DNA from: Escherichia coli
GTDB lineage: Bacteria; Pseudomonadota; Gammaproteobacteria; Enterobacterales; Enterobacteriaceae
Strand: one strand, 5' to 3'
Assembly (NCBI RefSeq): GCF_003334815.1
Contig: NZ_QOWO01000024.1
DNA length: 64,000 bases
The position numbers were made by a program, and so were the translations under genes. A model generated the notes under the pieces. The model had not been told where the DNA came from. It searched no databases and saw only the letters and a program-made list of their open reading frames with translations. Positions 20,467 through 27,266 of this stretch are shown in pieces. Each line of letters starts with the position of its first letter. Position 1 is the stretch's first letter.

Positions 20467-20665
20467 TAATCTCTCCTTTTAATGACAGTTCGGAATATCA
20501 GCATCAGTGAGTTGGGTTGTCGCCAGCACAATCTCACGTTCAAAGCCCTGCTCCAGCATGCGCAAAGCAATTTTAATGGCTTGTTCATGCATACCTTCCT
20601 GCCAGCCAATTTGATGCCCTTCCTGCCGTAGCCGTTCAGCAATAGTCATTAATCTCTCCTTTTGT
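20400..20665. repeat. Tandem direct duplication (~190-bp unit) covering the rpnE 3' end and ypaA
   Basis: CATGCGCAAAGCAATTTTAATGGCTTGTTCATGCA and CCGTTCAGCAATAGTCATTAATCTCTCCTTTT each occur twice about 190 bp apart. Confidence 0.8.
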
Positions 20666-21378
20666 AGTGGTGAACGTTCGGCAATCTCCTCAATAAAACG
20701 GGTGAAACGGGAGGTATCGCCGCATTGCAGCAGATAATTAAACAGTGTTTGTAGCTGGCTGTCATTAGTGAAGCCTCTAACCAAAAGCGTGGTGATCCTG
20801 TCGACCATGCCGATTAAATCGCGGTCGCGAATATGCTTTTGAATCAGTTCCAGCAGAGCTATACGCCGATGTTGCATGATCTCATCGTCAGGTACGATGG
20901 TGATATCCACCAACGGAAAAGCTTCGGTGTACAACTGCCGGGCAAGTTGCGGATCGTCAAACTCATCCAGCCAGTTGAGTGAGTACGGGTAAGGCGAGGT
21001 TTCGCCATGATAAAACAGCAACGGCACCACCAGCGGGACTCTGTCATAGCCTTTGTCCAGGTGACGCTGCATGGCGGCAGTGGCATAGCGCATTAGCCGA
21101 AAAGCCATATTCTTTTCTGCAGAGCTTTGATGTTCAATCACGCAGTAGATATAGCCGTCACCGTCGCTGGTTTCCACGGACCACAAAACATCCGAGTAGT
21201 AAGCGCGTAAACTTTTTTCAATAAAACTAGTGGGTTCCAGGCGTAAGGTTTGCAGGTTGCAAAGCTTGCGCAGTGGTTCTGGTAAATGTATTTCGAGAAA
21301 ATCCCGTGCGGTTTCGGGTGTGAACATAAAGGTTTTAAATACCGCATCATGCGGGGAGGAGGTTGTTGATTCGGTCAT
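20479..21378 (-). CDS. rpnE: Rpn-family recombination-promoting nuclease / transposase-like (PD-(D/E)XK) protein RpnE (YfaD)
   Basis: 299-aa ORF; Rpn/YhgA-like family by sequence recollection; located between rhmA and glpC. Confidence 0.8.
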
Positions 21379-21570: not shown

Positions 21571-25635
<4,065 letters not shown>

Positions 25636-25781
25636 TGTTATCCCTCTGAAGTTCGTTTTTTACCATTTAGCCATAGTAAAAACATGAATTGTTTGATTTC
25701 GCGCATATTCGCTCATAATTCGAAAGTGAAACGTGATTTCATGCGTCATTTTGAACATTTTGTAAATCTTATTTAATAATG

Positions 25782-25797
25782 TGTGCGGCAATTCACA
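25782..25797. promoter_or_regulatory. CRP-binding site in the glpTQ / glpACB divergent control region
   Basis: TGTGC-ggcaat-TCACA matches the CRP consensus TGTGA-N6-TCACA with one mismatch, inside the 272-bp AT-rich region between glpA and glpT. Confidence 0.6.
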
Positions 25798-25907
25798 TTT
25801 AATTTATGAATGTTTTCTTAACATCGCGGCAACTCAAGAAACGGCAGGTTCTCTCACTGAATCAGGCTGTTAATCATAAATAAGACCACGGGCCACGGAG
25901 GCTATCA

Positions 25908-27266
25908 ATGTTGAGTATTTTTAAACCAGCGCCACACAAAGCGCGCTTACCTGCCGCGGAGATCGATCCGACTTATCGTCGATTGCGCTGGCAAATTTTC
26001 CTGGGGATATTCTTTGGCTATGCGGCTTACTATTTGGTTCGTAAGAACTTTGCGCTTGCTATGCCTTATCTGGTTGAGCAGGGATTCTCACGCGGTGATT
26101 TAGGTTTTGCCCTTTCGGGGATCTCGATTGCTTATGGATTTTCGAAATTCATCATGGGTTCGGTATCGGATCGCTCGAATCCGCGCGTTTTCCTGCCCGC
26201 AGGTTTGATTCTGGCGGCGGCAGTGATGTTGTTTATGGGCTTTGTGCCATGGGCGACGTCGAGCATTGCGGTGATGTTTGTACTGTTGTTCCTCTGCGGT
26301 TGGTTCCAGGGGATGGGGTGGCCGCCGTGTGGTCGTACTATGGTGCACTGGTGGTCGCAGAAAGAACGTGGCGGCATTGTGTCAGTGTGGAACTGTGCGC
26401 ACAACGTCGGTGGTGGTATTCCGCCGCTGCTGTTCCTGCTGGGGATGGCCTGGTTCAATGACTGGCATGCGGCGCTCTATATGCCTGCTTTCTGCGCCAT
26501 TCTGGTGGCATTATTCGCCTTTGCGATGATGCGCGATACCCCGCAATCCTGTGGCTTGCCGCCGATCGAAGAGTACAAAAATGATTATCCGGACGACTAT
26601 AACGAAAAAGCGGAACAGGAGCTGACGGCGAAGCAAATCTTCATGCAGTACGTACTGCCGAACAAACTGCTGTGGTATATCGCCATCGCCAACGTGTTCG
26701 TTTATCTGCTGCGTTACGGCATCCTCGACTGGTCACCGACTTATCTGAAAGAGGTTAAGCATTTCGCGCTAGATAAATCCTCCTGGGCCTACTTCCTTTA
26801 TGAATATGCAGGTATTCCGGGCACTCTGCTGTGCGGCTGGATGTCGGATAAAGTCTTCCGTGGCAACCGTGGGGCAACCGGCGTTTTCTTTATGACACTG
26901 GTGACCATCGCGACTATCGTTTACTGGATGAACCCGGCAGGTAACCCAACCGTCGATATGATTTGTATGATTGTTATCGGCTTCCTGATCTACGGTCCTG
27001 TGATGCTGATCGGTCTGCATGCGCTGGAACTGGCACCGAAAAAAGCGGCAGGTACGGCAGCGGGCTTTACCGGGCTGTTTGGTTACCTGGGCGGTTCGGT
27101 GGCGGCGAGCGCGATTGTTGGCTACACCGTGGACTTCTTCGGCTGGGATGGCGGCTTTATGGTAATGATTGGCGGCAGCATTCTGGCGGTTATCTTGTTG
27201 ATTGTTGTGATGATTGGCGAAAAACGTCGCCATGAACAATTACTGCAAGAACGCAACGGAGGCTAA
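25908..27266 (+). CDS. glpT: Glycerol-3-phosphate:phosphate antiporter (MFS)
   Basis: 452-aa 12-TM MFS protein; divergent from glpACB. Confidence 0.95.

Follow-up and report, generated by a model that had tools for sequence, protein, structure and literature searches.

The closest described system is the glpTQ-glpACB divergent control region of Escherichia coli K-12 (Larson et al. 1992; Yang et al. 1997; Kurabayashi et al. 2017), which is the same locus as the one analysed here and has an identical spacer. In DNase I experiments on this region, CRP-cAMP protects 25 bp that contain AATGTGTGCGGCAATTCACATT (25778-25799 in our coordinates); the protected stretch spans -30 to -52 relative to the glpT start and overlaps the -35 box. 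CRP binding was also seen by gel shift, and mutants in crp or cyaA show no detectable glpT expression (Kurabayashi et al. 2017, PMC5352689). The FNR(D154A) footprint reported in the same study is 70 bp long, ends 32 bp upstream of the CRP footprint and includes the sequence TTGAT-TTCG-CGCAT. Both glpTQ and glpABC are given as FNR-activated by Myers 2013. In that paper ChIP-chip yielded an FNR peak at glpT/glpA only for a strain without hns and stpA; FNR occupancy of glpT/glpA in vivo is weak. As for the repressor, a passage of PMC3050690 cites Larson 1992 for four sites of glpACB at -60/-41, -28/-9, -8/+12 and +33/+52, and Yang 1997 for IHF sites at glpT +15/+51 and +193/+227.

The control regions of glpD and glpFKX share with this locus the tandem 20-bp operators for GlpR. 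At glpD an operator that matches the consensus at 20/20 positions is followed by one that matches at 15/20, and the matches at glpF are of 15-17/20; the difference is that the control of glpT works at a distance. The consensus itself, WATKYTCGWW.WWCGARMATW, is the glp operator palindrome that Zhao is said to have described in 1994, and we validated it on the 20/20 match, located 33-52 bp before the start codon of glpD in K-12. Two classes of promoters complete the comparison. At class II CRP-dependent promoters, such as galP1, CRP is centred at -41.5, and at class II FNR-dependent promoters FNR is found at -41.5 as well.

We analysed one stretch of E. coli DNA of 64,000 nucleotides, called the window in the following. 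The region under study is framed by these features:

24007-25635, minus strand: glpA, an open reading frame of 542 aa (NCBIfam NF008313, 1107 bits; annotated as b2241 in K-12)
25636-25907: spacer of 272 bp between glpA and glpT, according to the open reading frame list of the window
25897-25901: GGAGG upstream of glpT, within the conserved block GGCCACGGAGGCT (25891-25903)
25908-27266, plus strand: glpT coding sequence, glycerol-3-phosphate:phosphate antiporter, an open reading frame of 452 aa (NCBIfam equivalog, K-12 annotation)

The sequence-only reading, made before our analysis, had seen here an AT-rich divergent control region of glpACB and glpTQ, 272 bp in length, and this is confirmed by the flanking genes, by the G+C content (36.4% in the spacer, 51.7% in the whole window) and by the identity to K-12. 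GlpA, GlpB, GlpC, GlpT and GlpQ were identified via NCBIfam equivalog models; glpA is followed by glpB and glpC, and glpT by glpQ. Between E. coli K-12 MG1655 and the window there is 100% identity across 341 bp that span the whole spacer (a K-12 coordinate is 2378282 minus the window coordinate), and a 751-bp query was found in 5413 of the 5426 complete E. coli genomes at an identity of at least 95%. The CRP 22-mer, the FNR box, the operators and the IHF positions are all shared with K-12, and we see no difference between the two. It is almost certain that this locus and the divergent glpTQ-glpACB control region of E. coli described in the literature are one and the same. In summary, this is a textbook, fully published control region, and what had been observed and how it had been interpreted are essentially correct; the finding as such adds nothing new, because the whole arrangement has already been published.

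For the comparison with other species, 120 loci were gathered by a DNA-pattern scan for the N-terminal codons of glpT, and an alignment of 40 spacers was used, that is, the window and 39 Enterobacteriaceae spacers of 249-276 bp. The block GGCCACGGAGGCT upstream of glpT has a conservation of 95% across these 40 spacers. A search with Rfam gave no RNA families in 25300-26300. Furthermore, a sigma-70 scan recovered neither of the two known promoters, as is expected with promoters that depend on an activator.

Several observations concern the neighbouring genes. The glpB open reading frame (22758-24245, minus strand) has 495 aa, but the GlpB models cover only residues 77-495, so that the true glpB start must be internal; the frame as listed overlaps the end of glpA. 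The gene downstream of glpC (20479-21378, minus strand; 299 aa; NF007418, E = 3.6e-211) encodes a recombination-promoting nuclease of the Rpn family or a protein like the ISNCY-type transposases. IS1A interrupts glpT in two E. coli genomes of clinical origin, 14EC001 (NZ_CP024127.1; positions 1083-1780 of the extracted locus) and strain 361. In 14EC001, the N-terminal fragment of glpT stops about 220 nt into the coding sequence. The control region stays intact, and the insertion in glpT is probably a route to fosfomycin resistance.

The elements of the glpT promoter are the following:

25782-25797: CRP core TGTGC-GGCAAT-TCACA, agreeing with TGTGA-N6-TCACA at 9/10 core positions, within the footprinted 22-mer at 25778-25799
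25819-25824, plus strand: -10 hexamer TAACAT of glpT, from the TAnnAT spacing in orthologues; block conservation 0.80
25831, plus strand: inferred transcription start of glpT, an A (25829 in Kurabayashi's numbering)

The motif TGTGC-N6-TCACA is present exactly where it had been read from the sequence, and the comparison with the published footprint places it inside the 22-mer protected by CRP-cAMP (PMC5352689). The idea of catabolite control is supported both by this footprint on the very motif that had been named and by the loss of glpT expression in crp/cyaA mutants. The centre of the CRP site lies at -41.5 of glpT, as in class II promoters; relative to the published start of glpA it is at -90.5. 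Note that with Kurabayashi's glpT start at 25829 the centre would be at -39.5, not -41.5. In orthologues, we counted a CRP core if it had at most 2 mismatches and its centre was 80-200 bp before the ATG. By this measure, 86 of the 104 regions upstream of glpT in Enterobacterales have one, compared with 5% of shuffles and one of the eight non-Enterobacterales loci, and 72 of the 86 have a TAnnAT hexamer exactly 21 nt past TCACA. We infer from this geometry that the glpT promoter is a class II CRP-dependent one. It resembles such promoters in the overlap with the -35 position, the 21 nt to the -10 hexamer and the absolute dependence on CRP. Since the CRP site overlaps the glpT -35 position, CRP-cAMP bound at 25782-25797 activates glpTQ in class II fashion and is indispensable for its expression.

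What sets the glpT promoter apart from other class II CRP promoters is the distal half-site, which reads TGTGC and not TGTGA. In the 72 orthologous sites of class II geometry, TGTGA is missing from the eight most frequent variants of the distal half-site, which together account for 67 sites (TGTGC is found 36 times, TGTGT 13 times), and the proximal half TCACA is kept in 64 of the 72. The distal half-site (25782-25786) looks like a conserved sub-optimal one, which may possibly tune the response to cAMP.

Other observations were made around this site. Directly upstream of it (columns 25762-25779), most Enterobacteriaceae have the sequence TGTCATA-N5-TGTAACA. Dickeya, Pectobacterium and Serratia have a version of it too; in E. 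coli and E. albertii it has degenerated to TGTAAATCTTATTTAATA. It loosely resembles the GTAAA-N5-GTAAA box of CpxR, a protein reported to be a glpT repressor. The spacers of Proteus, Providencia, Budvicia and Moellerella are longer (380-436 bp) and have, at a distance of 59-60 bp upstream of the glpA FNR box, a perfect or nearly perfect CRP site such as TGTGATTAATATCACA; the CRP site at their glpT promoter is weaker. The arrangement of CRP on the glpA side in these four genera therefore differs from that of E. coli. Finally, GlpT homologues of Bacteroidales, with about 60-68% identity, share a motif of 15 aa. At several of the Bacteroidales loci glpA is not divergently adjacent to glpT and lies about 4 kb away, and among eight low-identity loci we found no CRP-like site before glpT, save one match with 2 mismatches.

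On the glpA side and in the glpT leader, we place the following elements:

25648-25667: GlpR operator GAAGTTCGTT.TTTTACCATT, at glpA +33 to +52; 15/20 and the cited position
25688-25707: GlpR operator ATTGTTTGAT.TTCGCGCATA, at glpA -8 to +12; 17/20, the best in the spacer, 90% conserved
25693-25706: FNR-type box TTGAT-TTCG-CGCAT, agreeing with TTGAT-N4-ATCAA at 7/10 positions (3 mismatches) and overlapping the strongest GlpR operator
25699, minus strand: published glpA transcription start (P1), deduced; K-12 2352583
25708-25727: GlpR operator at glpA -28 to -9, from the cited positions and in register with the other three; weak, below 14/20
25740-25759: GlpR operator CATGCGTCAT.TTTGAACATT, at glpA -60 to -41; 15/20 and the cited spacing
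25860-25872, plus strand: IHF-like core AATCAGGCTGTTA, agreeing with WATCAANNNNTTR at 12/13 positions, within the cited footprint at glpT +15 to +51 (25845-25881)

The operator consensus is degenerate and only weakly specific, with 45 matches of at least 15/20 in the 64 kb. The three best matches in the spacer (17/20, 15/20 and 15/20) are located within 112 bp, where 0.41 matches of at least 15/20 are expected per shuffle, and the spacings between them, 40 and 52 bp, equal those between the cited sites at -60/-41, -8/+12 and +33/+52. We therefore set the fourth, weak operator at 25708-25727. The published glpA start is put at 25699 because this is the only frame that aligns the cited operator intervals with the three best consensus matches. 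A frame based on a start at 25658-25659 was rejected, as it leaves three of the four intervals without a consensus match and puts the best match (17/20) outside all of them. The starts of glpT (25831) and of glpA P1 are 132 bp apart, which we take to be the separation already known for them. The sequence-only reading had expected GlpR operators and an FNR site somewhere in the spacer; both kinds of element can now be given positions, the four operators from the cited positions together with the consensus scan, and the FNR box by its location within the 70-bp FNR(D154A) footprint (PMC5352689).

Put together, these elements describe how the region works. GlpR on its four 20-bp operators covers the glpA promoter, and glpT is repressed by GlpR from a distance, helped by IHF in the glpT leader (approximately 25845-81); we infer that the mechanism of this repression is looping. 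Glycerol-3-phosphate releases GlpR. The stretch bound by FNR lies upstream of the CRP site and holds the box at 25693-25706; FNR raises anaerobic expression.

The FNR box has some properties of its own. Its TTGAT is 99% conserved in the 40 spacers, and an orthologous box TTG[C/T]T-N4-ATCAA, with 9/10 agreement, is found in Proteus, Providencia, Dickeya, Pectobacterium, Serratia, Budvicia, Moellerella and Samsonia. The centre of the E. coli box, 25699.5, is on the deduced P1 start of glpA and at approximately -131 of glpT. The 20-bp element at 25688-25707 is both an FNR-type box and the best of the GlpR operators; it leans towards the FNR consensus in the distant genera (ending in AGCAA) and towards the GlpR consensus in E. 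coli (ending in CGCAT). The T that makes this element TTGAT, at a place where the operator consensus has TTCGAT, is invariant in the aligned orthologues; this suggests that it may be under a double constraint, by FNR and by GlpR.

Three more features have to be considered, two of them in a palindrome and one in a possible second promoter of glpA (P2):

25727-25741: palindrome TGAAA-CGTGA-TTTCA, spanning -29 to -43 of glpA P1, where the -35 region lies, with the -28/-9 operator on one side and the -60/-41 operator on the other
25732-25736: CRP-type half-site CGTGA, within the palindrome
25665-25673, minus strand: predicted extended -10 element TGGCTAAAT of the possible P2, with a predicted start near 25658

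We asked whether the palindromic motifs could be understood differently. A CRP-like motif in AT-rich DNA may have arisen by chance and play no part in regulation, and it is true that CRP cores with at most one mismatch occur in the whole 64-kb window at the rate expected by chance (2 observed, 1.99 expected). On the other hand, the 272-bp spacer contains one such core where just 0.012 are expected per dinucleotide shuffle; in the 40 Enterobacteriaceae spacers each CRP half-site has a conservation of 0.93, against 0.55 for the 6 bp between them and 0.63 for the whole intergenic region; and the distance of 21 nt to the -10 hexamer is fixed across genera. Rarity in shuffles, half-site conservation and fixed spacing refute the chance explanation, to which we give practically no credence. 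The case is different for the second palindrome, also pointed out by the sequence-only reading, which assigned no function to it. It does exist, one base to the right of where it had been placed (25727-25741 and not approximately 25726-25740), but its symmetry is not beyond chance: the spacer has five perfect inverted repeats whose arms measure 5 bp and are separated by 0-8 bp, compared with 3.8 +/- 2.6 in shuffles, and 33% of the shuffles reach five. It could nevertheless be that the palindrome itself binds a dimeric regulator, as a second CRP site, an FNR site or a site of NsrR. The stretch AAACGTGATTYCRTGCGC, which includes the GTGA half-site, is conserved there and kept in Escherichia, Citrobacter, Enterobacter and Lelliottia; a CGTGA-N6-GCGTC can be read that is centred at -40.5 of glpA P1; and in Klebsiella and Raoultella, where the region reads TGTGATTTCATGCTCACA, one finds TGTGA-N6-GCTCA, readable also as TGTGA-N8-TCACA. 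The stretch is reached by the 70-bp FNR footprint as well. For NsrR, a ChIP-seq peak is known in the glpT/glpA spacer of the uropathogenic strain CFT073, with predicted 11-bp half-sites ACGTTTCACTT (the reverse complement of 25724-25734) and AACATGAATTG (25681-25691), and glpA is down-regulated under NO stress; however, the NsrR half-sites, of which the first overlaps the left arm of the palindrome, score low. All five arm pairs are complementary in just 7 of the 40 orthologous spacers, and only the second arm pair shows a change that looks compensatory (G-C to A-T, in five sequences), whereas the other pairs change on one side. Moreover, the arms place their G and C at a distance of 12 bp and not 9 bp as in CRP and FNR sites, therefore the symmetry of the palindrome is a different one, and the E. 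coli 16-mer differs from the CRP core at 5 positions and does not appear among the sites with at most 3 mismatches. On geometry, chance rate and lack of conservation, we rejected the palindrome as a CRP or FNR site, and we consider it rather unlikely that it is by itself the site of any of these dimeric regulators. The second palindrome is not a unit; it is the -35 region of glpA between two operators, with a CRP-type GTGA half-site. Judging from the motif, a second CRP site in the stretch 25727-25741 is still plausible, because a review states that CRP recognises several sites in this region.

The other alternative concerns the promoter of glpA. Potentially, there could be two tandem promoters, P1 (25699), used without FNR, and an FNR-dependent class II promoter P2 that starts near 25658 (K-12 about 2352624), 41 bp downstream of P1 and 23 nt before the glpA ATG. 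FNR at 25693-25706 would then be at -41.5, TGGCTAAAT would be an extended -10 element, and bound FNR would sit on the P1 start. The centre of the FNR box coincides with the P1 start, a place where an activator cannot act, but exactly 22 nt after the box follows CTAAAT, preceded by TGG. Read on the plus strand, this is the block CATTTAGCCA; it is 98% conserved, compared with 57% for the 16 bp between block and box, where no indels are found in the 40 spacers. In the eight distant genera, the box with 9/10 agreement is followed at 21-22 nt by TGn and a hexamer of the nnnAAT type, or by a hexamer with 5/6 agreement, even though the sequence differs: in most of these genera there are 22 nt ending in TGT and then CCCAAT, CTTAAT, CTGAAT or CCCACT. 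The TG of the P2 -10 is kept in Proteus, Budvicia, Dickeya, Pectobacterium, Samsonia and Serratia; Providencia and Moellerella are without it, and their hexamer is read as a 5/6 one, one base upstream. The invariant T of TTGAT and the operator at 25648-67, which would cover both the -10 and the start of P2, also fit this reading. Compared with class II FNR promoters in general, the likeness consists in a box of the TTGAT-N4-ATCAA type, the 22 nt and the TGn-extended -10, conserved across Enterobacterales; the geometry, though, agrees with the predicted start at about 25658 and not with the published one at 25699, and the E. coli box, with its 7/10 agreement to the FNR consensus, is degenerate, which counts against P2. 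So does CTAAAT, which matches TATAAT at just 3/6 positions, and there are other possible roles for the conserved block, either as the flank of an operator or as an element in the leader of the RNA transcribed from P1. Together, FNR box and conserved -10 suggest the signature of a class II FNR promoter starting near 25658, as far as sequence patterns can tell, and we lean slightly towards the existence of two tandem promoters. The complete proposal would be that glpACB has an undescribed FNR-dependent promoter P2 near 25658, that anaerobic FNR binding switches transcription from P1 to P2, and that 25688-25707 is at once an FNR site and the strongest operator. P2 may already be recorded in databases, and we regard this complete proposal as unlikely.

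Susceptibility to fosfomycin is set by CRP, FNR and GlpR acting at the glpT/glpA region (Kurabayashi et al. 2017, PMC5352689, and others). The region thus described governs the uptake of glycerol-3-phosphate and of this antibiotic. For the specialist, the point of interest may be the deeply conserved FNR box, which does not match the published glpA start and yet fits a conserved -10 element downstream of it.
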